From positions 1 to 64,000 of the forward strand of contig JBFOMH010000021.1 in NCBI GenBank assembly GCA_040830765.1: 64,000 nt of DNA, read 5' to 3'. The notes under the pieces were generated by a model. That model saw nothing but the letters and a program-made list of their open reading frames with translations. It had not been told where the DNA came from and made no database searches. Of this stretch, positions 1-17,500 are shown piece after piece (the stretch's first letter is position 1; every line of letters begins with the position of its first letter). The DNA is from Puniceicoccaceae bacterium (GTDB taxonomy: Bacteria; Verrucomicrobiota; Verrucomicrobiia; Opitutales; Oceanipulchritudinaceae). A program made the translations under genes and the position numbers.

Positions 1-627
1 CCCCCCCCTTTCTCCGTTCCCCCCGGCTGGGCCTCCCCCCCGCCCCCTAACCATGCCCCCCCCTCCCCCCCCCTTTCCCGAGGGGTCCAACCCCCCTCCC
101 CCATCGCCTCCCCCCCAGTCGAGGACCTCCCGGCGGTTTGGGCCTTTTCTTCCGACCTTTCCCCCGCCTTTCCCAAGAACCGCCTCAACGGAAGACTTCT
201 GCTCACGGGCCAGCGCTGCCATCATCTGGGCGGCCGCCGCTTCCATATAGAGTTGGCCAAGATCCTCCCGGGCCAGACGGAGGGCGGAGGCATATTCGGC
301 ACGAGCCAGGTCCAACCGGGCTTCTTCGCGGTCGTTGAGCGCACCTTCCCTTGTCAGGTTGGGAATGGGGAAGCGCAGGCTGACAGCGGTCTGGTCGCGG
401 TTGTTGGGCCGGTCGTCGGTACTGATGCGCAATTCGGGATCCTCCCAGACAAGGCGTTCTTCTGACCGGATGGTGCGGGCTTCAATCTCGACTTCAGCAA
501 GTTTCAGGGAAGGATGGTTTTGCAGTGCCGGGACGAGCCACTCTTCCAGCGTGATCAGGGTCTCCTCCCCTGGAAGCAGGATGCAAAAGGCCAGAAGGCC
601 CGTCAAAATGGTCCAGCTGTGCTTCAT
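1..627 (-). CDS. TolC/CzcC-family outer-membrane efflux protein, 5' part only (runs off window; last ~170 nt unreliable)
   Basis: Not in the ORF track because it has no stop in the window. ATG at 627 overlaps the HlyD stop (ATGA). My translation: MKHSWTILTGLLAFCILLPGEETLITLEEWLVPALQNHPSLKLAEVEIEA...WEDPELRIS...AVSLRFPIP..., i.e. signal peptide, 'AL-xHP-L' helix, 'DPEL' and 'SLRFPIP' strands typical of OEP proteins; directly follows HlyD. Confidence 0.7.
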   Translation of the reverse strand, partial: MKHSWTILTGLLAFCILLPGEETLITLEEWLVPALQNHPSLKLAEVEIEARTIRSEERLVWEDPELRISTDDRPNNRDQTAVSLRFPIPNLTREGALNDREEARLDLARAEYASALRLAREDLGQLYMEAAAAQMMAALAREQKSSVEAVLGKGGGKVGRKGPNRREVLDWGGGDGGGGLDPSGKGGGGGGMVRGRGGGPAGGNGERGG

Positions 628-1724
628 TCTCCCGGTTTCCAGCCTCCGAAAATTGACGTCCAAAACATCTCCCCGCGTGGAAGCAGGATGACAAGGCTGG
701 TCCCAGGTGGAAGGTCCATTGGCTCAACCGGGATAAGCTCCAGCCGCCGGCCCCGGACCACCTGGTTGGGGATGGGGCTGGCCCGATCGGGGACAGCGAT
801 AATCTGCGGGGAGATACCGGTGATTTCCGCGCGGAAGCGGTTGCCTCCGACAGCGGGCTCAACATCGATTACTTCCCCGATGGAAATGGGCCGGGTATCG
901 GTCTCGTCCATGAAGGCGAGGATCCTTGGTGGCTGCCGTGTAATGATATCGAGAATACGCTGGCCGGCGTCGATGACTTCCCCAGGTTGGCGCCGAATCC
1001 GGGACACCGTTCCGGACTCGCTGGCCCGCAGGATATGGTCCTGTCTCCGCTGTTCCAGCAATTGCAGCCGGGAGGGAATGGCGTCATCGCCGTTGACGGG
1101 CTCATACTGTGCGAGGACGGCAGACCGCAAGTCATTGAGATTGACCAGTTCTGCCTCCAGTTCCTCGATGGCTTCCGCATAGTGGATCAAGCGTTGATTT
1201 CGGGAAGCAACATCGAGATCGATCTCCACAATGTCCTCCGCTGTGGCAAAACGGTCGGCAATGAGGCCTTCAATCCTTTCCTGTTCAGTAAGGAGAAGGT
1301 CGAGCTCAGCCTGGGTTTCGGCCTGCGCCAGCCGAACTGCCCGAAGCTCTTCGCGGACTCTCTGGGAAGCGCTGAGGAACTGGCGCAGGTCCTCGGCCCG
1401 GTTGGCCTTGTAAGCGCTCTCCCGCAGGGCAATTTCCTCGTCGATAAGGGTTGTGTCCATTTCCGCGACGATATCACCGGCCTCAATGACCTGGCCTTCG
1501 CGGACGAGAATCGTTTTCAATCGGCCGGTCTCCAGCGGGGCCACGGATTCCTGGACAACCTCAACCATGCCGTTGATGCGAATGTATTCACCTCCGTTTT
1601 CATACAGCCAGAGGGCAAAGACGGCCAGGAAGAGCCATACGAGAATGGGCCACTTCCACCGGAGACGGCTCCAGAGGACGGAGGGATGGCGGGGCAGGGG
1701 ACGGGCTGGTTTTTCGCTGGCCAT
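624..1724 (-). CDS. HlyD-family periplasmic adaptor (membrane fusion protein)
   Basis: One N-terminal TM helix, lipoyl half-motifs (GRLKTILVREGQVIEAGDIVAEMD; LRASESGTVSRIRRQPGEVIDAGQRI) flanking a long coiled coil. Confidence 0.9.
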   Translation of the reverse strand: MASEKPARPLPRHPSVLWSRLRWKWPILVWLFLAVFALWLYENGGEYIRINGMVEVVQESVAPLETGRLKTILVREGQVIEAGDIVAEMDTTLIDEEIALRESAYKANRAEDLRQFLSASQRVREELRAVRLAQAETQAELDLLLTEQERIEGLIADRFATAEDIVEIDLDVASRNQRLIHYAEAIEELEAELVNLNDLRSAVLAQYEPVNGDDAIPSRLQLLEQRRQDHILRASESGTVSRIRRQPGEVIDAGQRILDIITRQPPRILAFMDETDTRPISIGEVIDVEPAVGGNRFRAEITGISPQIIAVPDRASPIPNQVVRGRRLELIPVEPMDLPPGTSLVILLPRGEMFWTSIFGGWKPGE

Positions 1725-2407
1725 CAGATTTCCACGGTTGAACGTTGCATGATCAGGCTGACCTCGTTCACTTCATCGATGATTTCGATGTCGCTGACCA
1801 GGTTCGTTTTGTAAGTCGGGTCCAGGAGCCTTACCTGATAGGCGTACTCCAGGAAGTCGCCCTGGGCACCTTCCCGCACTGAAACCATTTCCGCCGAACT
1901 GGCGTAGCGGTCAAATACCTCCTTCAGGGGCGACTCCAGCTTGTTGTGCCGTGGGGCGGAAAAGCGGAGCAGGCCCTCGAAGGAGCGCCTTGAAGAAAAG
2001 GGCGACCAGTGGAGGTAGAGGGAAGTCAGGCTGAAAAAGAGACTGCCGACAATGCAGACCATGAAAACCTGAGCTCCGGCGGCAATCCCGACGGCGAGGC
2101 TGGCAAAGAGGAATATAATGTCCCGGGGGTCGCGGATAGGGGTCCGGAACCGGATCAGGGCGAGGGCGCCAAGGATGCCCAGGCCGCGGGCGAGGTTGTT
2201 CCCGATGGCGATAATCATGATGCAGGAGACAACGGCCGCGAGGACCACCGTCTGCAAATAGGACCGGGAATAGGAAAAGCCGGAATGGGTCCAGCGGTAG
2301 ACCATTGCCAGCATGCTGGAAGCGAGGAAGGCCACGATCAGGCACAGCAGGAGCTGCATGCCATTGAGGGCGCGGGCGGGGCCGAGGGATTCGAATATGG
2401 GTTGCAT
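1724..2407 (-). CDS. DUF4956-family membrane protein (MgtC-like TM region plus C-terminal soluble domain)
   Basis: Signature IGNNLARGLGILGALALIRFRTPIRDPRDIIFLF; several TM helices; next to a VTC gene as is usual for this family; TGATG overlap with the HlyD start. Confidence 0.9.
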   Translation of the reverse strand: MQPIFESLGPARALNGMQLLLCLIVAFLASSMLAMVYRWTHSGFSYSRSYLQTVVLAAVVSCIMIIAIGNNLARGLGILGALALIRFRTPIRDPRDIIFLFASLAVGIAAGAQVFMVCIVGSLFFSLTSLYLHWSPFSSRRSFEGLLRFSAPRHNKLESPLKEVFDRYASSAEMVSVREGAQGDFLEYAYQVRLLDPTYKTNLVSDIEIIDEVNEVSLIMQRSTVEI

Positions 2408-2419
2408 GGGATATCAGGT

Positions 2420-3211
2420 TCAGTAGGTGCAGTTTTCCGCCGCATCCGAAAAAGAAAAGCCGCAATGCAGCAATTCAAGCCGGGTAGCAGTGGCATATTT
2501 GCAGAAGTCAGTCCGGACCAGGTTAAAGCGCTCGATAAGTTCGGCCATCCAGCTTGGCTGGTCGGAGGTGCATTTCAACTCAAGAATAAAGGCTGGATAG
2601 TCTCTCGCGTAGGTCATGGTGCTGTCCATGGCGCGCCAGCGACCGCTGCCGGGCAGGTCCCAGCCCCGCGTTGGCTGGTAACGGATTCGGCGATCGAAGG
2701 TGACCCGGGCGTAGGCGTCGTTCTCGCTCATGAAGCTTTCTCGGTCGTAGCGGACCCGCAGGACGGGCCGGGCGTTTATTAAACGAAAGGCGTGCTCGAA
2801 CTCGTAGAACGGCAACCGTTGCCTGTCAGGGAGGCTGGCCGGCATGCGGGGGCCAAGGATAATGTCTTCCAGGCCCGACCAGCCCGGTGGAAGGGCAGCA
2901 CGGCTCTTGTCGACAAATTCCCCGACGCGCCGTTTGATTTCCAGGAACAGCGGGGCGTTATCCGAGTTTCCATAGGTCCGGGCCCGCAACTTGAAGCGGT
3001 TGGCTGACTTGTTCTCGTTGGCGAGGTAGCAATCGCGTTTGTAGCTGTCGAAAAAGAGGGTCGAGACGGTGTATTCCCCGGTTACCGGGTCGGCATGCCG
3101 ATCCCGCTTGCAGAATAACAGGACAAAGTCGCGAATGGCATCCCGTAGCCGGACATCTACGACATATTTCATTTCGTAGCGGGCGATGTGCTGTTCGGAT
3201 GCAACGAGCAT
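2420..3211 (-). CDS. VTC-domain (polyphosphate polymerase-like, CYTH/TTM fold) protein
   Basis: Motifs RYEMKY, Y-x-V-STLFFDS, RFKLRARTY, FLEIKRR, VRYDRESF, RVTFD, ILELK, FCKY. Confidence 0.9.
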   Translation of the reverse strand: MLVASEQHIARYEMKYVVDVRLRDAIRDFVLLFCKRDRHADPVTGEYTVSTLFFDSYKRDCYLANENKSANRFKLRARTYGNSDNAPLFLEIKRRVGEFVDKSRAALPPGWSGLEDIILGPRMPASLPDRQRLPFYEFEHAFRLINARPVLRVRYDRESFMSENDAYARVTFDRRIRYQPTRGWDLPGSGRWRAMDSTMTYARDYPAFILELKCTSDQPSWMAELIERFNLVRTDFCKYATATRLELLHCGFSFSDAAENCTY

Positions 3212-3232
3212 GGGTAATTTTTTGACAAGGGA

Positions 3233-6200
3233 TTACTTGAGGAGCCAGACCCATCTTCCTGAGGGAGCCTCCGAAGCGACATAGGCATAGAGGTACTGCC
3301 ACCAGACCCAATTGCCAAGGATGGGCTCGCCATAGGGACTCCAGACCCATCCGAGGGTGTAGTCATCCACCCAGACACCGAGGCTTTCCTCCGCTTCACC
3401 GGGAGTGCCTCCCGGGTTGGGGCTGGCCTTCCATGCGGTCGATTGGGTTGGCCAGCCGCGTCTTCCGATGTTTGCCGGGATCAGCGAGTAGCCGGCGGTT
3501 GCGGCCTCCTCCGGCCACGGATTTCCGGGCTGATAGACGACTTCCTGGATCCGGCCAAGGGTGGCATGTTCCAGGACCAGGTGCTCACCGTCATTGGAAA
3601 GGTTGCCGGCATATTCACCGGCGACCGGGGCACTTGGATGCAGTTGCGCAAATGCGGCAGCATTGCTGACGACCAGGATACGTTCATCAGGCTGGATTTG
3701 CTGGCCGGGCAGGAAGCTGAAGCTGACCGCGCCGGAGAGTTGAACCCCGTACAGACTGATGGGAGCCGGACCGGCATTGCGGATTTCGATAAACTCGAGG
3801 TCCCGGCCCAAGGCGAGTTCCGTGGGCAGCGGGGCGTAGTGAATCTCCGCAATCTGCAAGTCGGCTGGATCCCCTTCTGGGTGGAAGTTGCCCTCCTGCA
3901 GGGGTCCCCACACGCCGTTGGAAAGGATGCGGGCCTTGATCGACGTCCGGAGATTGACGCTAAGGGGCTCTGAATAGACGAGGGCCTGCGGAGAGACCGA
4001 GCCTCCTGGCTGGCGGGGATCAGGACCGTTCAAGGTGTAATAGATGATCGGATTACCCGTGCTGAAGGTTTCCATGACGAGTGGGTTTTGCGGGGACAAC
4101 GAACCGGAGTACCGGGAAAATGTCGGAGCCGGGACCGGCGGGATGAGTCCGAGTTCGGCGTACTGCTGGAGGAGTAAACTGTTGCGGACCGGAATCAAGT
4201 TGTTGCGCAAGCGTTGGCGTTCCTTGACCCATTGGTTGTCCCGGGTATAGAGCTCGTAGGGTCCGGCAGTACGATGAACATCGCGGCGGTAGTCCCCCCA
4301 GCGGGCGGATTCTGCGACCAGAGCCCGGTAATTTTCAACTGAGCGTTCCTCCCAGAGTCGCAGGGCTTCATCGGTCGTCAGGACCCCGTTGTTGCGGAGG
4401 TGCTTCTGGATCCGGTCAGTGACAAGGATCCTGTACTCCGCATTACGGAGAAGGGAGTGGAATATTCCGCCCGGATTGTCCTCGGTATTCTTGAGGGTGG
4501 TGTTCGACTGCGGCGTCTCGAAGATGAACTCGCTATCCCAGGCCAGGAAGTACCACTTCCCTCCGTTACGGTTACGGATCGAATACCAGTTGTGGTGGTC
4601 CCAGTCCTCGTTGCCGCCCCAATGATTAAGCATCATGTAGTCGGTGAAGGCCTCCAGGTCCAGGACCTCGGCTATCTGGTTGTATACTCCCGGCTGGCTC
4701 GTGTCCTGGCGGACCAATGAAAGAAAGGTATTCCAGGCGTCGATTGTCCCATCGATGACCTCGCTGGAATTGAGGCAGTCATAATCGTCTTCATCGCCAC
4801 CGAAGTAGGAAGCGCCAAACTGGTTACTGGCCCTTTCCGTTGGATTGAAAAGACCCCAGAAGATGCCGTTGATGTAGAGGAAGGCGTTGATGTTGTGGAG
4901 GTAGGGTGAGCCCATTGCCCCCTGGAGGTCCTTGGCAAATTGGTCGCGGACGTACTGGGCGCGGCCCCGGTTGTCGCCCCGGAATGTATTGTGGTGCAAC
5001 CAGGACTGGTTGCCATGACCACGAAGGATGAGGGTATCAAACTCTGTGTCCGCATCCGGTTGCGGAAAGAGGGGAAACTTGAGATTGCCGTCCTCGTAAT
5101 CGCGACGGAAGGCGAGGCGGAAGGAGCGTTTTGGGGAGCGTTGGGGGTCCCGCATGTGACCGCCCTGCATACGGAGGCCGGCATCGATCTGGAAACCCTC
5201 ACGTCCATCGGGATAAATGAGCTCCAGGGAGACCGGTCGTTCCCAGTCCATGCCTGTCTCCTGCGGGTTCATGAAGATGCCAGTATTGCGGTCGAAAAGA
5301 TTCTCCTTGGCGGTGACAATGGAAAGCGTTGGCAGTGAGAGCAGCGACTGTCGCATCTGGTCCCTGTACTGGTCACTATCGGTCACTTCCGGGTCCATTT
5401 CGTAATCGGCCGGCATGTCCTCTCGGTTGCGGATGTTCTTCCAGGTCTGCGGATAGCCTTCGGGGTTGTTGTCCTGCCGGATGACGTCCTCGAGGAAGAT
5501 GTAGGTCTGGGTATCGACATCGGTTGCCTTGAAGCCCTCCTTGAAGGCATAGGCACGGAGGACGGTGGTCGTGGCAATGGGAACCGGTCCGGTGTAGGTT
5601 GTGCCATTGGATTCGGTCGGGAGGCTGCCGTCGGTGGTGTAGCGGATGGTGGCTCCCTCGGTGGCGCTGGTGATGACCAGATCAAAGGGCAGGTCATAAA
5701 AGCCCCGGTCAATTGAGAAAACGGTATCGGCGACGACTCCCTCGAAGGCGGGGACGAGATTGGCTGTACCCGGGGTCATGGCGGTAAAAAGCTGGTAGCT
5801 GCCGCTGGCGGAATCCCATCCGTAGGAAGTTCCAATCACCTGCGGGGGAAACTCCGGGGCCAGCTCACTGACCACGGTGCCGGCAGCGTTGTAGAGCCCA
5901 AGGTATTCACCGGAGGAACTGAGCTTGAAGGGAACCTGCAGGGGCAGGGCCGGGTCCCGCTGCTCGATATCCGTTGCAAAAACAAGGAGGTACCCATTGG
6001 CGGGAATGGAGACGGAGGGAAATATCCACTTACGGGGCAAGGTGGCGTCATCAGTCAGCGACCAGCCAGCCAGATCAATCGCTGTTGTCCCATAGTTATG
6101 CAGTTCGAGCCAGTCCCCCTCAATTCCGGTTGGCTCAGTGATGGGACTGGGTTCCTGCAGGCCGACAAAGTACCGCCACGGATCGGCCGGACCGTTCACG

Positions 6201-6829
6201 GAGGTGGTTCCAACCTGAACATCCACATGGAGAAAGGCGTCGCTGCTGCGAATGGATTGGTTCAGCAATTGAATGGCAATGACGTTGGTACCCGGCTGGA
6301 AAACCCCGTAGGCCGGTCCAAGGTTGAAGACTTCTCGGTGGTCTTGTCCGTCGCCGGCATCATTACTGGCCCGGTGGGAACCATCAGCGAGAGCAGTGTA
6401 GGGAAGGGGGGAGCCGTCGAAAGTGACATTCCCGTGGGCCACTGCGATGCCATCGATGTAGAGCACGAAGGCATCGTCGTAATCAATAATCAGATTCACA
6501 TCCTCGGCGGATTGGGCGGCAACCGGTTCCATTTCAATGAGGGACCGCGTGTAAAGGGTGGTCGCCTTGAGATACATCTCCCCATGGAGATTCGTTGTAA
6601 CCTGGTAATCCGTTCCGGCATCCATGCCAATTGGCAGGGTCGTTAGTCCCCAGGATGAATCGTCGAAATCCGGATGGCGCCAGTCTTCCGGGCCTGGGGT
6701 TGCATCAAGAACAAGCGTCGGAAAGGCGCTCAACTCGTTAATGCGGACAGACTGGGCGTGACCCTGGGAGAATAAGCAAATTGTCGCCAGGACAAGGCAC
6801 AAGGGCAGGCTGGGGCGCAAAGAAGACAT
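3233..6829 (-). CDS. Secreted CotH-kinase protein with lamin-tail and chitobiase/Fn3-like domains and a C-terminal Trp-rich tail
   Basis: Signal peptide; LTD motifs (DWLELHNYG..IDLAGWSLTD; EFIEIRNAG); IRYTTDGSLP; CotH motifs (KRSFRL, YINGIFWGLFNPTE, GNEDWDHHN, LAWDSE, ESARWGD). Confidence 0.88.
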   Translation of the reverse strand: MSSLRPSLPLCLVLATICLFSQGHAQSVRINELSAFPTLVLDATPGPEDWRHPDFDDSSWGLTTLPIGMDAGTDYQVTTNLHGEMYLKATTLYTRSLIEMEPVAAQSAEDVNLIIDYDDAFVLYIDGIAVAHGNVTFDGSPLPYTALADGSHRASNDAGDGQDHREVFNLGPAYGVFQPGTNVIAIQLLNQSIRSSDAFLHVDVQVGTTSVNGPADPWRYFVGLQEPSPITEPTGIEGDWLELHNYGTTAIDLAGWSLTDDATLPRKWIFPSVSIPANGYLLVFATDIEQRDPALPLQVPFKLSSSGEYLGLYNAAGTVVSELAPEFPPQVIGTSYGWDSASGSYQLFTAMTPGTANLVPAFEGVVADTVFSIDRGFYDLPFDLVITSATEGATIRYTTDGSLPTESNGTTYTGPVPIATTTVLRAYAFKEGFKATDVDTQTYIFLEDVIRQDNNPEGYPQTWKNIRNREDMPADYEMDPEVTDSDQYRDQMRQSLLSLPTLSIVTAKENLFDRNTGIFMNPQETGMDWERPVSLELIYPDGREGFQIDAGLRMQGGHMRDPQRSPKRSFRLAFRRDYEDGNLKFPLFPQPDADTEFDTLILRGHGNQSWLHHNTFRGDNRGRAQYVRDQFAKDLQGAMGSPYLHNINAFLYINGIFWGLFNPTERASNQFGASYFGGDEDDYDCLNSSEVIDGTIDAWNTFLSLVRQDTSQPGVYNQIAEVLDLEAFTDYMMLNHWGGNEDWDHHNWYSIRNRNGGKWYFLAWDSEFIFETPQSNTTLKNTEDNPGGIFHSLLRNAEYRILVTDRIQKHLRNNGVLTTDEALRLWEERSVENYRALVAESARWGDYRRDVHRTAGPYELYTRDNQWVKERQRLRNNLIPVRNSLLLQQYAELGLIPPVPAPTFSRYSGSLSPQNPLVMETFSTGNPIIYYTLNGPDPRQPGGSVSPQALVYSEPLSVNLRTSIKARILSNGVWGPLQEGNFHPEGDPADLQIAEIHYAPLPTELALGRDLEFIEIRNAGPAPISLYGVQLSGAVSFSFLPGQQIQPDERILVVSNAAAFAQLHPSAPVAGEYAGNLSNDGEHLVLEHATLGRIQEVVYQPGNPWPEEAATAGYSLIPANIGRRGWPTQSTAWKASPNPGGTPGEAEESLGVWVDDYTLGWVWSPYGEPILGNWVWWQYLYAYVASEAPSGRWVWLLK

Positions 6830-6881
6830 CTTCTGGGGTAGTAGACGGGGGAAAGACAGGGACAGATTAGGCAGAATTTTC

Positions 6882-6934
6882 GAGCAGACTGTAGGTCTGC
6901 TCCTTCAAAATGCCAACAAATACTTCATTTTGAA
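6882..6934. promoter_or_regulatory. Two dyads upstream of the CotH operon
   Basis: GAGCAGAC-N5-GTCTGCTC (6882-6902) and TTCAAAATG-N13-CATTTTGAA (6904-6934); no U-tract on the minus strand; function unknown. Confidence 0.35.
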
Positions 6935-6980
6935 CAGTAAAAAAGTGTACAATCGTGCACTTAGGAGGATGGTGCCCTCG

Positions 6981-9254
6981 CTAGAAGCGGTACAATATGG
7001 AGTGCTTCCCGGACCCGATGCCGTCAATCCGGATGAAATTCCCTTCACGAACGCCGAATACTTCGTGGTCATCAACCAGGACCTTGTTGGAGATGCCACC
7101 CTTGGCAGGAATTAACAGGCGGGAGACGGTATTGGCAGGGGTTTCGATTTCGAGTTGGAAGCTACTGCCGGGGTGATTCTCAAATCGCACGCTGACCGGG
7201 CCACGGATGGTCGGCTTAGTGATCTCGGCCCACTTGAGGGAGCCCGGTTGGGGGGCGATGAGGATTTGCTCGAAGCCGGGTGTTAGGGGCTGGATACCCA
7301 TGAGGTTGCGGGGGATGATATTGGCCGGGGCGGCTCCCCAGGCATGGTTCCAGTCCTGGTTGGGTTTGAAACGGTTGTCCCAGGCCTCGAGGGTGATGGT
7401 TGTTCCAACGTCGTAGACCATGTGGGCCCAGGAGCGTTCCCCGGTTGAGGTGAGGAGGGCGAGGGCGTAATCGTCCTGACCGGCGGCATAGAGCGCCTCA
7501 AGGAGGAACTGCGACCCATAGACACTGCAGGCCATGCCCTTGGACTGGATATGAGCCAGGACGGCCTCCATTGAGGCTTCGGGCACCAGACCGAAGGCAA
7601 GGGCAAACATGTTCGCATGGAGGGAACTGTGGGAGCTGCCTTCCCCGTCCAGTACAAGTTTCGTTGTCGGGTCGAAAAAGACCGCGTGAAAGCTTTCCCG
7701 GATCTCCGCCGCCCGGTCGCGGTACCAGCGGACATCGTCCGCATGGCCGAGGGCCTCTGCGATTTTCTCCATCAGGACGACGGCCCGGTAGTGGAACGCG
7801 TTGACAACCGCGTTCATCGGCCGGTCGTCGAAGTTATCCCGCTCCGACTGGGGCCAGTCGACAATGTTACGCAGGCCCTTGGGATACATTTCCAGGGAAT
7901 CCCCGACAAAATGAATGGAGGCCATGATGTCGTCATTCATCCCTTCGAGGGAAATCAGGTGGTCCTCACGGGCGAGGGCGGTCAGCGCCTTGGCCTTGAG
8001 GTTCTTGTAGTGAAATTCCAATGACGAGGGATCGCCAGTGTAGATGTAATCGTTCCAGGCGATGAGGACGGAATCGAGAATCCACTCCGTCGGCCAGGTA
8101 GGGTAGTGGATAAGATGTTCATGGGTGCGGCGCCCCATGGCGTACTCGCGGTCGACACAGTAGTGCCCCAGCTGGTTGATATAGGCATCCGCCTCATAGG
8201 GAATGCGCTCGCGGTCCCCGTCGACGTAGTATCCGCAGAAGCTGGTTGCCTTCATCGTGTAGTGGCAGAGTTCCCAGACATCGTTGAGTACCTCGCTGGA
8301 GGACTGGAAGCGGGCGGCATTGTCGTCGAACGGCGTATGGACCCGCAGCTGGCGAACGCTTTCCGGTGCCAGCTCCCGCTGCAGACTGTGAATCTCCACA
8401 TAGCGGAATGGATACACCTCAAAGAGATAATCCGGCATGTGGATGGCGAAGTCCCGCGTATTCCGTTCATCGGGGGGGATGACCAGACGATAGGTCGTGG
8501 TTCCCGGAACCAGCTGTAGCGGGATCATCTGGTAGCGCCGGCTGCCACCCGGTTCCCGGTCGATGCGACCCGGGGCCAGCAAGACTTCTCCCAGATGAAT
8601 CTCAATGGTCCGTTGCTGCTCCACCTCGACGTCGAGCTCGATGGTACCAAAGGCGGCTTTCCCGAAATCGATGAACCAGGCGCTTTCCCCGATACTCTGG
8701 ATCTCCGTAGCTGGTACAGGGGTGTAGACCATTCGATGGGCATCCACCGGGCGCTCGTGAGCGAGCGTGCCCGTGGTGAAGGCCTGGGTCTCCGACCATG
8801 TGCTGACGTCATCCGGTTCATTCCACGTCCGGACTTTCCAGTAATAGGTGGTATCGGACTCGAGTTCCTTTCCTTTGTAACGGACATGCGTGGATTGCCC
8901 GTCGACCGCCCATGCCGAACCGGGATCCGGCGCTCCACTGTCCCACAGGTCGCCCTCGCCAGCCTCAACACCGCTGGCGGTGCTCCCCACGATGATCTGG
9001 TAGCCCACCTGATGGGCATTGGGAGCCTGATCATTGACGATCCACGAAAAGCGGGGATACCGGTTGGTTATCTGGCCGTGTTCTGGCTCCACCAGGAGAT
9101 CGACCATTAATCCGGTCGGGCAATCTGCGGTTTTCATTTTGTCTTCCAAATTAGGGTGAGGTTGGGCCGACTCCAGGTAAGCCACCAACAGGCTTATCAT
9201 CAACAGGATGGAGACGATTTTGAGCAAAATAGGTCTTTTGTGATGAAGGCTCAT
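6981..9254 (-). CDS. Alpha-L-rhamnosidase, GH78
   Basis: N-terminal Fn3-like region (YYWKVRTW), FIDFGKAAFG, YVDGDRERIPYEAD, TLEAW...DWNHAWGAAP. Start may be the downstream MKTADC. Confidence 0.9.
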   Translation of the reverse strand: MSLHHKRPILLKIVSILLMISLLVAYLESAQPHPNLEDKMKTADCPTGLMVDLLVEPEHGQITNRYPRFSWIVNDQAPNAHQVGYQIIVGSTASGVEAGEGDLWDSGAPDPGSAWAVDGQSTHVRYKGKELESDTTYYWKVRTWNEPDDVSTWSETQAFTTGTLAHERPVDAHRMVYTPVPATEIQSIGESAWFIDFGKAAFGTIELDVEVEQQRTIEIHLGEVLLAPGRIDREPGGSRRYQMIPLQLVPGTTTYRLVIPPDERNTRDFAIHMPDYLFEVYPFRYVEIHSLQRELAPESVRQLRVHTPFDDNAARFQSSSEVLNDVWELCHYTMKATSFCGYYVDGDRERIPYEADAYINQLGHYCVDREYAMGRRTHEHLIHYPTWPTEWILDSVLIAWNDYIYTGDPSSLEFHYKNLKAKALTALAREDHLISLEGMNDDIMASIHFVGDSLEMYPKGLRNIVDWPQSERDNFDDRPMNAVVNAFHYRAVVLMEKIAEALGHADDVRWYRDRAAEIRESFHAVFFDPTTKLVLDGEGSSHSSLHANMFALAFGLVPEASMEAVLAHIQSKGMACSVYGSQFLLEALYAAGQDDYALALLTSTGERSWAHMVYDVGTTITLEAWDNRFKPNQDWNHAWGAAPANIIPRNLMGIQPLTPGFEQILIAPQPGSLKWAEITKPTIRGPVSVRFENHPGSSFQLEIETPANTVSRLLIPAKGGISNKVLVDDHEVFGVREGNFIRIDGIGSGKHSILYRF

Positions 9255-9319: not shown

Positions 9320-9436
9320 GGAGTTCAAAGGAATGGCGGACCCGGCAGATTATTGAATTAATCAGTTCAGCTTTGGTGCCCTTCCTTGGAGTACAAGCTA
9401 GTACATATTACACCTCGAACCCTCAAACCAACTATT

Positions 9437-10399
9437 ATGAATAAAATCAAACTCACTACCCTATGTGGACTCGTTTCACTGTTTTCCGTCTCAGCGTTTG
9501 CTGAATGGGTCCTGATTACGGACTTTGAAGGCGCTGTCTATGATGACTTCGACCTGTACAAGCGCTTTGCTCCCCAAGGTGACCTGTACTTGAGTGGCTT
9601 TGACCCGGTCAATGCCGCCAATGGTCACTATTATGCCGACCCCGGACCGCAGGTTGACGGAGCAAACAACCAGATTTGGAATGGCTTCACCCTGCCGACC
9701 CCGGTCGCCGAAGGGGAAACCGCTACCCTCAAGTTTGACGTTTATCTCTACTCGACCGGTCCGTTCAATCTGAATGTCGGTCTCAGTGATATTCCGGTTT
9801 CCATCGACGACACACTCTCCAAGGAAAACGGCCAGCTGCTCGAGCCCAACAATTATGGTTCCTATGAATCGCAGATGGGTATCGGAGAGACCCTGAATGC
9901 CCGTAACGGCAGCGGCTTTACCAACACTGGGGTCTTTTCTCCTGTTGGCGAGTGGTTCACCCTTTACTATGTTGCGGACAATGCCAATGACGTGACCTAC
10001 TTCTACTACAAGACTGCGGCCATGTCGGTTCCGACTGCGATTCCCCTTCCGGATGCACCGTTTGCCCTTTTCCGCAACGGTACCACGGATCCCCTCGTGA
10101 CCTTCACGATTACCAGTGCGGGCAGTAACAGCGGACCGATTGATGTCTTCCTTCTCGACAATGTCTACATCGACACGACGGGTCCGAACCTTGATGGTGG
10201 TACCCATGTCGGTGGTGAATTCTGGGGCGGCTACCCCCTCTTCGATGAGTCGGGTAATGTCGACACCGGTGACTGGTTGAGCTTCATCAATGTGGCTTCC
10301 GACCCATGGATCTATGTCTATAATCTGTCCACCTACGTCTACATGCCTGAAGATTACGTAAGTGGCACCGGTTCCTGGGCTTACGTCCCGAACTTCTAA
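9437..10399 (+). CDS. Secreted beta-sandwich-like protein of unknown function with C-terminal Trp-rich domain
   Basis: ATG 9437 gives a clean signal peptide (MNKIKLTTLCGLVSLFSVSAFA); ends WGGYP...GNVDTGDWL...DPWIY...GSWAYVPNF. Confidence 0.8.
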   Translation: MNKIKLTTLCGLVSLFSVSAFAEWVLITDFEGAVYDDFDLYKRFAPQGDLYLSGFDPVNAANGHYYADPGPQVDGANNQIWNGFTLPTPVAEGETATLKFDVYLYSTGPFNLNVGLSDIPVSIDDTLSKENGQLLEPNNYGSYESQMGIGETLNARNGSGFTNTGVFSPVGEWFTLYYVADNANDVTYFYYKTAAMSVPTAIPLPDAPFALFRNGTTDPLVTFTITSAGSNSGPIDVFLLDNVYIDTTGPNLDGGTHVGGEFWGGYPLFDESGNVDTGDWLSFINVASDPWIYVYNLSTYVYMPEDYVSGTGSWAYVPNF

Positions 10400-10607: not shown

Positions 10608-13600
10608 ATGAAAGACGTACTCCGCAAACGACTTCAGGTTGTCCTGTTGGGCAGCCTGCTTACAAGCACCTGGGCAGCGGCCCAGGAAGGAATCGAACCT
10701 CCCGAGGAGGAGGAAGTATTTGAACTGTCCGCCTTCGAAGTGGTAACAACCAATGACCGTGGCTACCTGTCGACCAATGCGGTCTCCGGAACCAGTTTGA
10801 ACATGGCCATCCGTGACATCCCGATGCCTCTGGAAGTCATCAATCAAGAGTTCATCGAAGATTTGCAGGCGACGGATCTGGAGGAAGCTCTCGATTATTC
10901 CTCTGGTGTCTTCACGCAGACCTTTGCCAATGGGTCCGGCGCGAACGCGCAGGGGAGTGCGGAAACGTCCCCCTCTGCTTCTGTCAGTGTGAACAATCCC
11001 TTCGCCAACTCTATCTCCATTCGCGGGTATTCTGTCCCGAACCAGCAGCGTTTTGGTTTTCGGGTGGGTGGCTTCGCGGTGGGTGAAGGCTTCAGTGTGG
11101 TTCTTGGCGGTGCGACCGACACACTTAATGCCCGCCGGTTGGAAGTGGTGCGGGGACCGGCCTCGCTGCTTTACGGGGTCAACGTCCTCAGTGGTATCGT
11201 CAACATCATGCCGAAGCGTCCCTTGTCAGAGCCGCGGGCGAACATCGGATTGAGCATGGGTAGTCATGGATTCATGCGGGGCACGGTCGATTTCACCGGT
11301 CCGCTGATCAAGAACAAGCTGAATTACCGCATCATGGGCGCCTATGAGGAGCGCGATCATTTTACGGATTTCCGTGGTGATCGCAAGGAGTATCTCGCCG
11401 GCCAAGTGGAGTGGCAAATCAATCGCACCACCCGCCTGTTGACCGAAATCCAGTGGGCCGACCAGTTGCGGAATGGCATTGGGCCGCAGTATTTCCGGGA
11501 TACCGTGGGAGGCAGCGGGACCAACAATATCGATTTCCGCAACAAGTATGGTGAGTTTGTCCAGTGGGGCCGGGAAGACATGAGTGATCTGATGGACCGT
11601 GACGAAAGCGATCCCGATGATGTCTGGTTAATCCGCAAGACCAACCCCATGGTTCCCTATAGTTACGGCAACCTCGGGGACAGCTACCGGATCAGCGGTC
11701 CAGATACCTATTTCCAACGTGAAGAGCTGAACGCCCTTGTTCTGCTTGAGACCCGACCCCTTGAAGGCCTCAGCCTTGAACTCGGTGGATACTACACCAA
11801 GATCGATCAAGAACAATTCACCATCGTGACCAATTCCGTTACGGGCTCAGAGGCCTCCATCCGGCCGAGCGATCTTGTTCCCTTCCCAATCATTTCCCAG
11901 CAGAATTTCTGGATCCGGAATCCGGAAGTACTTGATGTCCTCGGCCTTACTGACGTTCCTGACGGGCCAATCCGTTCCAAATACGGTTTGGACGAAGCGG
12001 TAGGATTCAGCGTCACGACGGACGACATTCCCTATATCTTCAATCCGGGATCACTGCTTACCGTTACCAGTGGTGGTATTGGTGAAGTCTTTGCGGTGCC
12101 GGACCGGTCCTTACGGGCCCAGCTTCCTGACGATCCTCCGTACAACACGACCAACGTCAAATTTGCCCGCTACAACTGGATCAAGACGCCCACGGAAGCG
12201 GAATCCATCCAGCTGCGTCTTCGTGCCGCCTATGAATTTGAAACGGGTATTCCCTTCATCAATGGTGGAACAATCAAGCACACTATCATTGGCGGTTATC
12301 AGTATACCAAGGACGACCTGATGATCGTCTCCGGACGACCAGGTGTTCCCGACATGGTTACCCAGGGGCAGATTACCAAGCGACCCGATTCGGGTGCATT
12401 TACCAACGGACGCCTTGGGGATGATCCCTACCTTCTCCGGAAGAGCGTCTTTGATTATTCGCCGATCTATTATAATGGTGAGCCGATAGCTATCCCCGGT
12501 TCCCTCGGAACGAGTATCCAGGACTTGGGACCTCTTCTCGATGAATATGTCAACGACGGCAAGGTCACCCATCCCGACGAAATCATCGGGCATAACCTGG
12601 CGCGTTCCGGCTGGCGTGACGTGGAAGCGGAGTACGGCGGCATCTACGGTATTTACCAGGCGCAGCTGTTCACCGACAAGCTGACCTTCATTGCTGGTGC
12701 CCGGCAGGATTCCTATCAGGTCGAGGAAACGGAACAGATCCGTCTCCTCGATGGCACGCCCTTCATTGACCCGACCAAGACTGGGACTCAGACCGATATC
12801 TACTACGGCAGTCAATCACTGACGACGCTCCCGTTCCTCATTAGCGGAACAGAGCCCTATTCCCAGGATAAGTGGTTTTCCGTTTTGCCTGACAACCTGA
12901 ATGAAGAAATCGAGCGGGAGATGGACCTTCTGCTGGAAGGACTCGGCGAGCAGGGGACCCGAAGCAAATTGTTTGAGGAAACCCAGAAGTTCGTCACCAA
13001 CACGGCTGGCTTGTCCTATCGGATTACAGAAGACCTGAGCATGTATGTTACCTATTCGGAAGGGGTTTTCCCGAATCAGGGACTCCGTGACGGAAATAAC
13101 AATCCGATTAAGGCGGAGCAGACAACCGGCAAGGAAATTGGCTTCAAGTTTGATTTCTTTGACGGCAAGATTTCCGGCACCGTTTCCTTCTTCCAGATCG
13201 AGCGGGAGAACGCCACCTGGAACTTCCGCTACGCTCCGTCACCGCGCCGATGGATTGGCGGCCGTTTCGGGGATTCCGAGACCGAGGCCTACGAGAAGCA
13301 GAGTTATGGTAACTTTGACGCCAAGTCATGGGTCAGTGGTGACGGTGCCGAGGCCAGGGTTTATGAGGACTTCTTCTTCTCCGGCTATGGCCAGCCCTAC
13401 CAGCAGGCCAGTTACGGCGTCCATGAGGACTTCTTCAAGCAGGCCTGGCGGGACTTCATTGGCGAGGAACCGCCCGAAAACCTGAACATTGCCATAATCG
13501 AAGAATTAACCGGTATCAACTTTTTGGCCGCGAACGACTTTGGTGTCGGTGGTTCCCAGGAGAACCTCGGCGAGGTCGACCCTTACTATTTTGCTGACGT

Positions 13601-14453
13601 CAACCGGGACCTGGTGGCGGGCAAGCATATCAATGAAAACGGGGTTGATGTCGGCCTGATGATGCAAGCTGCCTTCGATGCAGCCCTGGCCGCGAAGGAG
13701 TTCGATGGTTTCAGCATCTACTACATCAACAATGGACGAAACGGCGAATTTGGTGCGGGTAACAATCCCAGCAACCAGACCGGCGCCCTGGTCACTTTCA
13801 AGGAAGAGACCATTGGTGTGGACGGGCAGATTATCTTCAGCCCGACAAACAATTACCAGATCCTCCTGACCTATTCCCACCAGCAACGAGAAGTTGTTGG
13901 GAACGGATTTGACCTGGCACCGCTCATTGATCCGGTGACCGGAATGAAGATTGTCGGGACCAAGTATGATTCCTGGGTACAGGTGCTCGGGGAGGAAAAT
14001 TTCAGCGATCCGGGAGACCCGACGACCTTCAACGGCAATGGGGTCAACGGCCTGGACCTGTCATTTGTTCCCGAATGGAATGTCAGTCTCTGGAACAAGT
14101 ACCGCTTCAATGAAGGTCCTCTTGAAGGGCTGGAGCTGGCCGGTGGTGTGAAGTACTATGGTGAGGCACCAACATCAGTGCCGATTGGTGGAACGCGCTT
14201 GAACGAGAATGAATTCCCGACCCCACCGACACCGGAGCGGTTTGAATTCGATGCCAGTCTTTCCTACCGGTTCACCTTGATGAACCAGGATTGCCGGATC
14301 GCCCTGAAGGTGAACAACCTTCTTGATGACCGGGTTGACGAGGCCGTTGTCCAGTACGAGGATCCGGATGGACCGATTAATCCTGTCTATCGTCGGACCC
14401 GCGTCTACTACGGACCACGGACCTACCGTTTGCAGTTTTCCATGGCCTTTTAA
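10608..14453 (+). CDS. TonB-dependent receptor, large verrucomicrobial type
   Basis: Signal peptide, VFELSAFEV TonB-box-like segment, plug (LEVVRGPASLLYG), C-terminal NNLLD...YYGPRTYRLQFSMAF with terminal Phe. Confidence 0.95.
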   Translation: MKDVLRKRLQVVLLGSLLTSTWAAAQEGIEPPEEEEVFELSAFEVVTTNDRGYLSTNAVSGTSLNMAIRDIPMPLEVINQEFIEDLQATDLEEALDYSSGVFTQTFANGSGANAQGSAETSPSASVSVNNPFANSISIRGYSVPNQQRFGFRVGGFAVGEGFSVVLGGATDTLNARRLEVVRGPASLLYGVNVLSGIVNIMPKRPLSEPRANIGLSMGSHGFMRGTVDFTGPLIKNKLNYRIMGAYEERDHFTDFRGDRKEYLAGQVEWQINRTTRLLTEIQWADQLRNGIGPQYFRDTVGGSGTNNIDFRNKYGEFVQWGREDMSDLMDRDESDPDDVWLIRKTNPMVPYSYGNLGDSYRISGPDTYFQREELNALVLLETRPLEGLSLELGGYYTKIDQEQFTIVTNSVTGSEASIRPSDLVPFPIISQQNFWIRNPEVLDVLGLTDVPDGPIRSKYGLDEAVGFSVTTDDIPYIFNPGSLLTVTSGGIGEVFAVPDRSLRAQLPDDPPYNTTNVKFARYNWIKTPTEAESIQLRLRAAYEFETGIPFINGGTIKHTIIGGYQYTKDDLMIVSGRPGVPDMVTQGQITKRPDSGAFTNGRLGDDPYLLRKSVFDYSPIYYNGEPIAIPGSLGTSIQDLGPLLDEYVNDGKVTHPDEIIGHNLARSGWRDVEAEYGGIYGIYQAQLFTDKLTFIAGARQDSYQVEETEQIRLLDGTPFIDPTKTGTQTDIYYGSQSLTTLPFLISGTEPYSQDKWFSVLPDNLNEEIEREMDLLLEGLGEQGTRSKLFEETQKFVTNTAGLSYRITEDLSMYVTYSEGVFPNQGLRDGNNNPIKAEQTTGKEIGFKFDFFDGKISGTVSFFQIERENATWNFRYAPSPRRWIGGRFGDSETEAYEKQSYGNFDAKSWVSGDGAEARVYEDFFFSGYGQPYQQASYGVHEDFFKQAWRDFIGEEPPENLNIAIIEELTGINFLAANDFGVGGSQENLGEVDPYYFADVNRDLVAGKHINENGVDVGLMMQAAFDAALAAKEFDGFSIYYINNGRNGEFGAGNNPSNQTGALVTFKEETIGVDGQIIFSPTNNYQILLTYSHQQREVVGNGFDLAPLIDPVTGMKIVGTKYDSWVQVLGEENFSDPGDPTTFNGNGVNGLDLSFVPEWNVSLWNKYRFNEGPLEGLELAGGVKYYGEAPTSVPIGGTRLNENEFPTPPTPERFEFDASLSYRFTLMNQDCRIALKVNNLLDDRVDEAVVQYEDPDGPINPVYRRTRVYYGPRTYRLQFSMAF

Positions 14454-14484
14454 GAGGTTGTTATAGGTATCCATTAGGTTTAGG

Positions 14485-14538: not shown

Positions 14539-17500
14539 ATGAATAAGCGTTCTCTTGCATTCAGCCTTCTCTCCACTTTCCTGGCTGGGATCGTTTCATC
14601 CGGTGATGGAACAGATTGTCTCGTGGAGGGATTCGGAAGTCCCCCGCTGGAGGCCAAGCCAAAGACATGGATGCATGTCATGAGCAGCAATATGTCGCGC
14701 GAGGGACTGAGCAGGGACCTGGAGGCAATCGCCTCCGCCGGAATCGGAGGGATTCAGCTTTTCAACGTGACCCAGCGGATTCCGCGAGGAAACGTGTATT
14801 ACAACACCGATGAGCACCGCGAACTGATTCGCCATGCCATACTGGAAGCCGATCGCCTCGGCCTGACCTTTGATATCCACAACTGCGATGGCTGGTCCTC
14901 CAGCGGTGGGCCATGGGTGACGCCCGAGGACTCCATGAAAATGGTCGTCTGGTCGAGCCAGCAATGGAGTGGCGGCAAAGGTGAACTGGTCTTGAAACAG
15001 CCCACCATCCGTGAGGGATTTTATGAGGACATTACGGTCCTCGCCTATCCGGCCCTGCCAGGTGAGCTGGCGGATGCAGCGGCCCGCATGCAGGTCACGG
15101 CATCGGACCCGGATTTTTTTGATACGACCCTGGTTACCGACGGTCGCTGGGAGGAAACCTCAACCATCGGGGAAAGGGAATCCGGTGGATGGGTGCAGTT
15201 CTCCTTTGAAACCCCATTCAGCGCACGCTCCCTGCTTGTTGTCCATGAACTCCGGGAAGGGGAAGTGGAACTGCAGTACTCGGACAACGGTACTGACTGG
15301 GATTCGGCCGGAATGACCCAGGTAATCCGCACCGGCAAGCGGGAATGGATAAATCACGACACCTTTGCGCCTCTCACGGCGCGGTTTTTCCGCTTTGTTT
15401 TTCCGGCAAAGACCTCCATCAAGGAGATCCGCCTTTCAGCTTTGCCGGCTGTCGAGAACCTCATCGGCCGCAATGCCTTCGGGAATGCCGAGGACATCCA
15501 GATGCAGCCCCTTGGCGAGATTGATGAGGAGGCGATTATCAACCCGCAGGAGATTATCGACCTGACTGGCGCACTCCGCCCGGATGGCCTTCTTGATATT
15601 GAGCTTCCCGCCGGTGACTGGACTATTCTCCGCATCGGCTATACCTCCACCGGGGCCTTCAACAATCCGGCCTCCCCGGAGGGGAGGGGACTGGAGTGTG
15701 ATAAGCTGGATGCGGGCGCCTTCCGCCGGCACTGGGACGCTTTCATCGCCCGGGTCATCGAGGAGAATCCCGACGAGACAGGAAAGGCCTTCCAGTCGGT
15801 CCTCATCGACAGTTACGAGGCGGGAGGACAGAACTGGACGCAGGGATTCGAGCAGCTGTTTCGGGAACGCAAGGGCTACAGCCTGAAGGAGTTCCTCCCG
15901 GTCTTGACCGGTCGTTATGTCGAGAGCACGGCCGTGACCGACGCCGTCCTGTACGACTTTCGACAGGTGGTGGCTGACCTGATGGAGACGGAATATTATG
16001 GGGCTTTCGCGGAGCTGTGTCATTTGTATGGATTAAATAGCTACATCGAGCCCTACGGCTTTGGCCCGCTGAAGGATCTGGACATTGGCAAGTTTGCCGA
16101 CATCCCGATGGGCGAATTCTGGTCCACGCGGGATTCCTTCCGCGGTCTGCAGGCAGCCCGTTCCTCAGCCAGCGTTTACGGCCGCAACATCGTGGCTGCC
16201 GAGGCCTTTACTTCCTTTCCACAAATCAACTGGAAAGGGCATCCCGGGATGATCAAGACCAAGGGCGACATCGCCATGACCTACGGGGTGAACCGCTTTG
16301 TCTTCCACCGGTATGCCCACCAGGCCAATACGCATGTCGAGCCCGGGATGACGATGAATACCTGGGGATTTCACTTTGACCGCACCCAGACCTGGTGGGA
16401 CAATGCCGGGGCGGCTTTCTTTGAATACCTTGCCCGCTGCTCCCATGTCCTGCAGTCGGGCATACCGATTGCTGATGTTGCCCTTTACGAGGGGGACGGG
16501 GCGCCCGCTTCCCCAATGTACGGTGGGGATTTACAGGAATTGATTCCGCAGGGGTATCTTTTCGATAACCTCAACCGGGACGGTTTCTTCAACCGCACCC
16601 GCATCCGCGCGGACCGACTGCTGCTGGCGGGCGGCAATGAATACCGTGTACTGGCCTTGCGGCCGGGAGTGCGGATCGAACTGGAGACCATGCTGCGCCT
16701 GCGTTCCGTGGTCGAGGCCGGCATTCCCCTGATCGGGGACCGTCCCTCGGGTATTCCCGGGCACGGATACGATGCATCGGACCATGCCCTTTATAAGGCT
16801 TTGGTTGAGGCCATCTGGTGCCGGGATAACGTATTTCCCTGGGGCGCTTTTAAGGAGGCAATCGCCTCGATCAAGCTCGCCCCGGACCTGGAGATCCTCG
16901 CACGGCCGGACATCCGCTTCGTCCACCGTCATGTTAATGGTGTGGATGCCTGGTTTTTCTATAACCCTGATGCGGCGGAAACGACATTCACCTGTCGCTT
17001 CCGCACGCCCGGTGCTCATCCGCAATTCTGGGACCCGGTGACCGGGGAGCGGAGCCGGTTGAGGGATTTCTCTTTAATAAATGGAGTCACCGAGACATCG
17101 ATCCGCCTCGAGGCAAACGGTTCCGCTTTCGTGGTCTTCGGACTGCCGGAAGATGCCTCCCTGCCGGTGGTCGCCTTTCACCAGGCGGAACCGGTCATTT
17201 TTCAGGAGCAAAACCTGACTGATGGATGGGTCGTTCAATTTGGACCTGATGGTGCGGGCGTCCCGTTCCCGGAGCTTGTCGACTGGAAGGAGCATCCTGA
17301 TGAGGCCATCCGTTATTTCTCCGGAACGGCCCGTTACATGAACCGATTTTCTGTTGAAGCGGGAGAGCTGGATGACGGTCGTCAGGTCCTGCTCGACCTC
17401 GGCACGGTTGAGATTTGCGCCCGGATCCTTGTCAATGGAACGGATCTCGGGGTCCTGTGGAAAAAGCCCTTCCTGAAGGAGATAACATCCGCCCTCAAAC

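Follow-up and report, generated by a model that had tools for sequence, protein, structure and literature searches.

A 64,000-nucleotide (nt) stretch of DNA from a Puniceicoccaceae bacterium (assembly GCA_040830765.1, contig JBFOMH010000021.1), hereafter the window, whose coordinates are used throughout, opens with five co-oriented open reading frames (ORFs) that lie on the minus strand and span 6829..1. They encode, from 5' to 3', a CotH-like protein, a VTC-domain protein, a DUF4956 membrane protein, an HlyD-type periplasmic adaptor and a TolC-type outer-membrane duct. We report that the last four very probably act as one unit, a reading drawn from the gene order, the close coupling and conservation of the genes, the fact that no pump accompanies them and the EmrA-type adaptor, which would suit a partner without a periplasmic domain. 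The four proteins would then form one dedicated envelope-spanning assembly. We give an even chance to the further proposal that polyphosphate (polyP) made by the VTC protein exits through DUF4956, adaptor and duct, while the use of the exported product as phosphoryl donor by the CotH-like protein is put forward as a tentative idea. The link of adaptor and duct to VTC-DUF4956 is new relative to the literature searched; the CotH/VTC/DUF4956 trio itself is already known.

The operon and its conserved core

The CotH-like gene (3233..6829) is separated from the VTC gene (2420..3211) by 21 nt, and the latter from the DUF4956 gene (1724..2407) by 12 nt. The DUF4956 stop and the start of the adaptor gene (624..1724) have one base in common (TGATG), and the adaptor stop overlaps the TolC ATG at 627 in ATGA, the TolC gene (1..627) being open at the window edge. 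An earlier reading of the sequence, the original prediction, had described exactly these gaps and overlaps, and the ORF list and the reverse-strand sequence bear it out for the minus strand. It had also held that no ABC, RND or MFS pump lies inside the operon and that DUF4956 is the sole polytopic membrane protein. Both statements stand: no ABC, RND or MFS domain was detected by Pfam among the five proteins, and a hydropathy scan of the operon finds several hydrophobic blocks only in DUF4956, with one in the adaptor and none in the VTC protein.

Related loci were collected by searching one-genome-per-species contigs with a 15-sequence VTC alignment (A3), and the resulting 56 loci (set A) belong in 53 cases to Opitutales, Puniceicoccaceae, Verrucomicrobiales, Kiritimatiellales or their kin, the remaining titles being 'uncultured bacterium' (two) and 'uncultured Enterobacteriaceae bacterium' (one). 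The nearest, L004 from an Opitutales metagenome-assembled genome (MAG), has 74% identity in VTC, 80% in DUF4956 and 56% in the adaptor. VTC is followed by DUF4956 on the same strand in 53 of the 56 loci, the exceptions being L042 (no DUF4956 in 1.5 kb), L055 (where the contig ends) and L059 (a fragmentary VTC match). An adaptor gene follows DUF4956 in 51/53 (50 by tblastn and L019 by Pfam), and the two loci without one, L021 and L046, have only 99 and 986 nt of contig remaining. The gene after the 50 adaptors found by tblastn is TolC-like in 32 loci; in four the contig ends, in one (L005) CotH follows directly and in one (L035) there are ORFs without a Pfam match. A DPBB_1 protein ('lytic transglycolase') of 133-202 amino acids (aa) occupies the duct position in L014, L023-L026, L031, L032, L036-L038, L040 and L044, and might serve in the passage through peptidoglycan or as a link to the outer membrane. 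Sixteen further DUF4956 loci (set B), scoring above 290 bits (the high class) among 251 sampled genomes of the phylum and including no duplicates of set A at 97% identity or more, have VTC-DUF4956 in 16/16, the adaptor in 15/16 (not L065) and the duct in 12/15.

The adaptor-linked DUF4956 proteins form a distinct and very conserved clade, with more than 290 bits against 131 or less elsewhere. Over 54 sequences the mean column identity is 70% for DUF4956 (alignment A4), compared with 62% for VTC and 35% for the adaptor. A middle class of nine loci (110-131 bits), the sister clade, has VTC beside DUF4956 in all but L081, and an HlyD_3 adaptor after DUF4956 in L076, L077 and L078. Four other loci of this class are without adaptor and duct, and there a gene of the Porin_O_P family comes directly after DUF4956 (L079 9636-10847, L080 7669-8937, L083 9639-10871 and L084 7721-8965); neither adaptor nor porin follows in L081 and L082. 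The founders of this porin family, OprO and OprP, form channels specific for pyrophosphate and phosphate (PMC9769906). The phosphate-porin variant is an independent pointer to a phosphate anion as cargo. A complete pump is encoded beside the cassette in L078 alone, where the cassette's adaptor gene is immediately followed (10967-14471) by genes for another adaptor (HlyD_D23, 96.5 bits) and for a permease of the MacB type. In the lowest DUF4956 class, CotH lies beside VTC-DUF4956 in 10 of the 11 loci L085-L095 (nine by Pfam and L088 by tblastn, L087 being left out of the Pfam annotation of this class), and the other three matches (G029, G059 and G200) have CotH within about 3 kb by coordinates.

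The association is also seen at the level of whole genomes. Profile searches place VTC and DUF4956 in the same 37 of the 251 genomes, and 39 of the 40 DUF4956 matches have a VTC match at no more than 400 nt, the exception lying in a 580-contig assembly. CotH occurs in 54 of the genomes, that is in 37/37 with the VTC-DUF4956 pair as against 17/214 without it. Among 14 control genomes, VTC and DUF4956 were found in the same three (Bacteroides thetaiotaomicron, Corynebacterium glutamicum and Methanosarcina acetivorans), and CotH in those three and in Bacillus subtilis. The spread is patchy: a genome of the same genus (G069) has no VTC, DUF4956 or CotH, and the counts are 0/40 and 0/20 in families f19 and f26. 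Since related genomes are not independent, such counts describe the association and do not test it.

Base 1 of the window is the end of contig C21, and it cuts the TolC gene. The automatic ORF call starts this gene at TTG 663; ATG 627 is preferred here, giving a signal-peptide-like N-terminus that coincides with residue 1 of the L004 homologue. The sequence of the gene is reliable from about 170 to 627. Positions 1..169 are a degraded contig end, a G-rich and error-laden copy of the true sequence kept at the start of contig C3, and the poly-G-degraded stretch extends from base 1 to about 170-200. Window 21-249 matches C3:23-250 on the opposite strand at 75% identity, with mismatches that are G-rich noise on the window side, and DNA contigs of run X1 are identical to window 170-7300 and end at 170. 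G-rich noise of this kind is typical of two-colour sequencers. The first 22 bases of C3 are unmatched as well, and low-quality sequence is thus found at both contig ends. C21 and C3 are neighbouring contigs left unjoined by the assembler, with a junction that rests solely on their overlapping, poor-quality ends.

Because the window start copies the start of C3 and the X1 contigs end at 170, the TolC gene is taken to run on into C3. The correct frame is open throughout the C3 part (L003 2..862), and a hidden Markov model made from the post-adaptor ducts of other loci matches L003:2-862 with E 1.7e-30. One OEP (PF02321) repeat lies on each side of the break, and both exceed the cut-off of 22 bits, with 38.5 for the N-terminal repeat in the window and 23.2 for the C-terminal one on C3. 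The gene would come to about 405 aa if the halves meet at the shared stretch, the TolC frame being split over two degraded contig ends. The original prediction had named a pump to the left of position 1 as the finding that would speak against it. What the recovered sequence holds is the rest of TolC and then an aldo/keto reductase, and no pump gene was detected by Pfam in the annotated flank downstream of TolC on C3.

Putative polymerase, candidate conduit and adaptor

The VTC protein (263 aa) matches Pfam VTC (PF09359) with 119.6 bits against a cut-off of 23 and is predicted from its sequence to be a cytoplasmic triphosphate-tunnel enzyme of the Vtc4 (polyphosphate polymerase) type. With a profile built from 40 homologous VTC sequences (A2), the catalytic domain of yeast Vtc4 (3g3q) scores E 3.3e-18, and the non-catalytic Vtc2/Vtc3 match more weakly. 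Residues K15, R76, R78 and E211 of the window protein stand opposite K200, R264, R266 and E426 of Vtc4 in a HMMER alignment, K200 being what we take to be the label of the 2009 structure paper, and all four are invariant in A2 and in a second alignment of 54 sequences (A5). The triple mutant R264A/R266A/E426N is the inactive form of Vtc4 that was used for cryo-electron microscopy (PMC9911596). The yeast complex makes polyP at the cytoplasmic face and couples synthesis to passage through a channel along a positively charged path (PMC9911596). The catalytic domain family and the tunnel residues are common to the window protein and the eukaryotic VTC complex (yeast Vtc4/Vtc3/Vtc1; 3g3q, 7ytj, 8i6v). 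The two differ in that the window protein, in which Pfam finds the VTC domain only and hydropathy no hydrophobic segment, has neither an SPX domain nor a fused membrane domain, and in that its membrane partner would be the separate DUF4956 protein, with MgtC-like helices and an ACT-like domain, instead of a Vtc1-type three-helix subunit. The presumed destination is likewise different, being the cell exterior by way of adaptor and duct and not a vacuole.

The DUF4956 protein (227 aa; PF16316, 44.4 bits against a cut-off of 30.6) is our candidate for the inner-membrane conduit. Its score with MgtC (PF02308) is 16.7 against a cut-off of 31.4 and denotes a resemblance only. The AlphaFold2 (AF2) model, with a predicted local distance difference test (pLDDT) score of 76.8, has five helices (residues 16-40, 48-68, 71-84, 94-111 and 115-134) and a beta-alpha-beta-beta-alpha-beta C-terminal domain that in Foldseek weakly resembles ACT and S6 folds. 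Foldseek returned nothing at E 0.001 or better for the whole model, and a single-sequence search of solved structures gave chance-level rows only. An MgtC-like membrane domain joined to ACT is also how the family has been described in print (PMC12345266). An invariant arginine-rich loop, RFRTPIRDPRD, occupies residues 86-96, and its RFR core is present in every DUF4956 clade examined. The positive-inside rule would place this loop in the cytoplasm.

The HlyD/EmrA-type adaptor, or membrane fusion protein (366 aa; HlyD_3, 33.8 bits against a cut-off of 22.2), is modelled by AF2 at pLDDT 87.5 with a membrane helix (residues 25-43), a lipoyl domain, an alpha-hairpin with helices 92-156 and 163-207 (65 and 45 residues) and a beta-barrel; a membrane-proximal domain is absent from the model. 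The best solved structure for it is EmrA in EmrAB-TolC (8zal), with E 8.6e-18 and a TM-score of 0.52. The EmrAB-TolC system (8zal, 8zar, 4tko) shares with the present one the single anchor, the lipoyl domain, the long hairpin, the beta-barrel, the lack of a membrane-proximal domain and a TolC-type duct, and differs in its MFS transporter, which has no counterpart here, and in an adaptor of only 14% identity. The protein also falls far under every cut-off of the NCBIfam models for EmrA/EmrK, type I HlyD, RND_mfp and DevB, the best scores and cut-offs being 53.1/393, 50.1/390.8 (EmrA), 44.3/208.65 and 43.9/94.9. The partner of EmrA is an MFS pump, and both this partner and DUF4956 are without a large periplasmic domain. 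No cognate ABC, MFS, RND or PET gene was found in the operon or after the duct.

The proposed mechanism has cytoplasmic VTC polymerising phosphate from ATP. The growing polyP chain would be passed to DUF4956, with its arginine-rich loop predicted on the cytoplasmic side, as the conduit of the inner membrane, and the EmrA-type adaptor and TolC-type duct would take the polyanion across periplasm and outer membrane. Secreted CotH proteins, of which the genome encodes four, may depend on the exported product, perhaps as phosphoryl donor. We infer polyP as the product, conduction by DUF4956, the outward direction and the use by CotH; for polyP as cargo the grounds are the Vtc4-type catalytic residues, the arginine-rich loop and the phosphate-porin variant. 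A bolder version, which we regard as speculative, would make polymerisation itself the motor, such that the chain is threaded through DUF4956, adaptor and duct without any pump and the extruded polymer serves as donor or attached modification for secreted CotH enzymes acting on surface proteins or glycans. Sister versions of the cassette would use a phosphate-type porin for the outer step or, in single-membrane bacteria, nothing.

Several observations weigh against these proposals. The search patterns for set A came from close relatives and were biased to this clade, and the loci are from related species and are not independent samples. A small DPBB_1 (RlpA-like) protein follows the adaptor in 12 of the 50 loci mentioned above, all Verrucomicrobiales-type MAGs, and a transporter lies nearby in three related loci only (a sugar-type MFS_2 in L007, an ABC ATPase in L033, and L078). 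For the membrane part of DUF4956 Foldseek found no solved look-alike and the model is a moderate one, with the arginine-rich loop poorly modelled (pLDDT <50 at residues 89-91). No bacterial VTC protein assayed for polymerase activity was found in the literature searched, and many tunnel-family enzymes are hydrolases. No fused VTC-DUF4956 protein turned up in the longer length class searched, which is weak evidence. The genome also encodes PPK1 (PPK2 had no match in it), so that polyP synthesis can do without VTC. TolC ducts are usually cation-selective inside, and the RNA-library contigs described below may be DNA carry-over. Finally, CotH is adjacent in only 14/53 loci of set A and 3/16 of set B, counts that are lower bounds because the contigs are short. 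The original prediction had joined all five genes into one export and surface-phosphorylation system. Its core of VTC, DUF4956, adaptor and duct has gained from the conservation (51/53 and 32/50), the missing pump and the phosphate-porin variant; CotH joins this core at the level of genomes (37/37) but is seldom its neighbour. Of the conditions that the original prediction named against itself, the two that concern sequence, a pump behind TolC and a linkage lost in relatives, were checked and neither came true, so that the prediction is supported in part.

Secreted CotH proteins and the surrounding genes

The secreted CotH-family kinase-like protein (1198 aa) matches Pfam CotH (PF08757) with 60.9 bits against 23.8. 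Its N-terminus is signal-peptide-like, the CotH domain covers about residues 553-823, and the further modules are two LTD (76.3 bits) and two CHB_HEX_C/Fn3_assoc (CHB_HEX_C_1, 81.5 bits). A single-sequence search of solved structures with this protein found nothing, whereas a profile of nine CotH-domain sequences (A7) matches CotH of B. cereus (5jd9) with E 1.1e-6. The columns equivalent to B. subtilis D228 and D251 are invariant in 9/9 sequences of that profile, and D228Q and D251A are inactive mutants of B. subtilis CotH (PMC7821199). The spore-coat kinase of Bacillus (5jd9) is of the same Pfam family, with both catalytic aspartates aligned, but differs from the window protein, which is exported, has three times its length and is equipped with LTD, CHB_HEX_C and a tryptophan-rich tail. 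Bacillus CotH, moreover, uses ATP within the mother cell. We rejected type I secretion as a route for the window's CotH, the N-terminus being of the Sec type and no ABC gene lying in the operon or flank.

The genome encodes VTC and DUF4956 once each and four CotH proteins, all of which carry LTD modules and signal-like N-termini. The other three paralogues adjoin glycoside hydrolases (GH), a CBM protein and a sugar MFS transporter (L096-L098). Co-occurrence of CotH with the cassette is strong, yet silent on chemistry, and a role of the exported product as its phosphoryl donor stays among our doubtful suggestions. Giant exported proteins with five LTD domains and no CotH domain are located after the duct gene in related loci (L008 5118-9131, L013 13997-17434, L043 11032-15060 and L028 7049-7702), and LTD may be a recurring partner module of the cassette.

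The tryptophan-rich C-terminal tail of the CotH-like protein, which the original prediction had pointed out, is confirmed with 8 W in the last 48 residues. Tails rich in Trp and Tyr with a repeated G-W-[VIL]-[WY] end two CotH paralogues and an unrelated exported protein of 326 aa in this genome, and a similar tail terminates the LTD giant of a relative (L013); the sites are window 3233-3380 (minus strand), L098 4615-7311 and 11224-12204, and L013 at about 17174-17311. The recurrence rests on inspection of three C-termini, the tail having no Pfam or NCBIfam model and its tblastn matches being weak and low-complexity-like. The tail may serve in anchoring at the surface or in sorting.

Upstream of the CotH gene, the intergenic stretch 6830..6980 (minus strand) contains a single sigma-70-like site, at 6916..6888. 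Its agreement with the consensus is no sign of function, as the promoter scan gave two promoter-like sites in 7.3 kb where 3.0 were expected, and a terminator scan found no excess of sites over shuffles. In two oligo-dT metatranscriptome runs, from the study that is also the probable origin of the DNA, each of the five genes is matched in part by identical contigs, some of which span the junctions CotH/VTC (2716-3404 and 3190-3394) and adaptor/TolC (529-888). These RNA-library contigs lend weak support to transcription of the genes; they carry no information on strand or level and are silent on a single transcript.

The flanks are rich in genes for polysaccharide degradation, with GH78 and GH106 rhamnosidases, a sulfatase and a TonB-dependent receptor of 1281 aa (window 6981-9254, minus strand, and 10608-14453, plus strand; L003 5916-13487). 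Between rhamnosidase and receptor lies an ORF of 337 aa without a Pfam match (window 9386-10399, plus strand). On C3 the TolC part is followed by the aldo/keto reductase, a protein of 869 aa with sub-threshold Pfam matches only (CBM_35, Golvesin_C), an FAA-hydrolase-family protein, GH106 and the sulfatase. No pel genes were found in the annotated flanks of about 7.6 kb upstream and 13.5 kb downstream.

Alternative explanations and known systems

The sugar-related surroundings bear on the best surviving alternative, an unlikely one in our estimate, in which the exporter of four proteins is real but powered by VTC, a tunnel NTPase or triphosphatase driving DUF4956, and the cargo is another, for example a sugar polymer or a small molecule. 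The gene-linkage evidence fits this equally well, hydrolases are known in the tunnel family, and the neighbours comprise glycoside hydrolases, a sulfatase and sugar transporters. Yet the residues kept in VTC are those of the polymerase subunit Vtc4, with a weaker match to Vtc2/3, the phosphate-type porin that accompanies VTC-DUF4956 in the sister clade suits a phosphate anion better than a polymer of sugars, and Pfam detects no glycosyltransferase in the operon. The same alternative draws on the Gram-positive trio, which lies beside pel polysaccharide genes and whose mutants have lower Pel (PMC12345266).

VTC and DUF4956 could also be an inner-membrane pair for homeostasis or sensing of phosphate or energy, with adaptor and duct serving a pump encoded elsewhere and the genes being neighbours for the sake of regulation. 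The weak MgtC match of DUF4956 (16.7 bits) and its ACT-like C-terminal domain would suit such a role (SIR_1592 is likewise described with an ACT domain; PMC12345266), as would the many genomes with VTC-DUF4956(-CotH) and no adaptor or duct (L081, L082, L085-L095) and the MacB or ABC gene near the cassette in L078 and L033. It leaves the adaptor after DUF4956 in 51/53 and 15/16 loci, often with overlapping stop and start, the scarcity of pump genes (near the cassette in three loci only) and the distinct adaptor-linked DUF4956 clade (>290 against 131 or less bits) to be explained, and we hold it to be slightly less likely still.

It is improbable that the assembly acts like MacAB-TolC and carries Sec-exported CotH/LTD proteins, or another protein of the periplasm, through the outer membrane. 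Giant secreted CotH/LTD proteins do adjoin the cassette in L005, L008, L012, L013, L023, L043, L045 and L054, and CotH is present in 37/37 DUF4956 genomes. Folded proteins of 100 kDa or more, however, are not known to pass a TolC duct, the conserved catalytic residues of VTC would be left unexplained and the phosphate-type porin variant does not fit the export of proteins. Nor does such export agree with the presence of the trio in single-membrane bacteria (PMC7112168). Import or scavenging of external phosphate or polyphosphate, for which one may cite the Porin_O_P gene after DUF4956 in four loci and the induction of the uptake channels OprO and OprP by phosphate starvation (PMC9769906), is very improbable, as adaptor and TolC assemblies are known for export (PMC8277102) and VTC resembles an ATP-consuming polymerase and not an uptake component.

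The proposed export of polyP by way of adaptor and duct has a parallel in Sinorhizobium meliloti, where the HlyD-like adaptor and TolC of BgsA/BgsB/TolC have been proposed to export the growing polymer of a mixed-linkage beta-glucan (PMC13438883). In both systems the pump's position at the inner membrane is, or here would be, taken by an enzyme that builds a polymer, with an HlyD-type adaptor and TolC alongside. The polymer of S. meliloti is a glucan, however, produced by a membrane-embedded glycosyltransferase that forms its own channel, while here the enzyme is soluble, the conduit would be a separate small protein and the polymer is presumed to be inorganic.

The families CotH, VTC and DUF4956 are linked, with a secreted CotH-like protein, in Gram-positive bacteria as well, and cotH, a polyphosphate-polymerase gene and DUF4956 have been described as accessory genes contiguous with pel operons (PMC7112168). 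Mutants of S. intermedius in CotH and DUF4956 show lower Pel and aggregation (PMC12345266), and VTC/CotH genes are reported from a locus of C. perfringens (PMC2879425). The 2025 paper reports that its authors met the trio in pel loci only (PMC12345266); in the window and in 70 or more loci of the present collection it stands by itself. The Gram-positive pel hosts have one membrane and neither adaptor nor duct, and the flanks of the window differ from a pel locus in holding GH78, a TonB-dependent receptor, the aldo/keto reductase, GH106 and a sulfatase. On the function of the trio the original prediction, which knew of none established, is in line with the literature found, with the qualification that published accounts already place the trio next to pel loci of Gram-positive bacteria (PMC7112168, PMC12345266). 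A link of a VTC domain or polyphosphate polymerase to HlyD, TolC or a membrane fusion protein was not in print among the matches listed. An in-silico study of polyP binding reportedly mentions 'VTC domain' together with 'outer membrane'.

The cassette offers a defined genetic handle on the placement of bacterial polyP outside the cytoplasm and on the phosphoryl donor of extracellular kinase-fold enzymes, and its four small genes are movable into a model host and assayable there. If polyP is indeed exported in this way, the cassette would give bacteria their first counterpart of the eukaryotic VTC polymerase-translocase, and it would be a tripartite TolC-type assembly with an inner-membrane partner that is neither ABC, MFS, RND nor PET. 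It would also explain the presence of the CotH/VTC/DUF4956 trio beside the pel biofilm loci of streptococci and clostridia.

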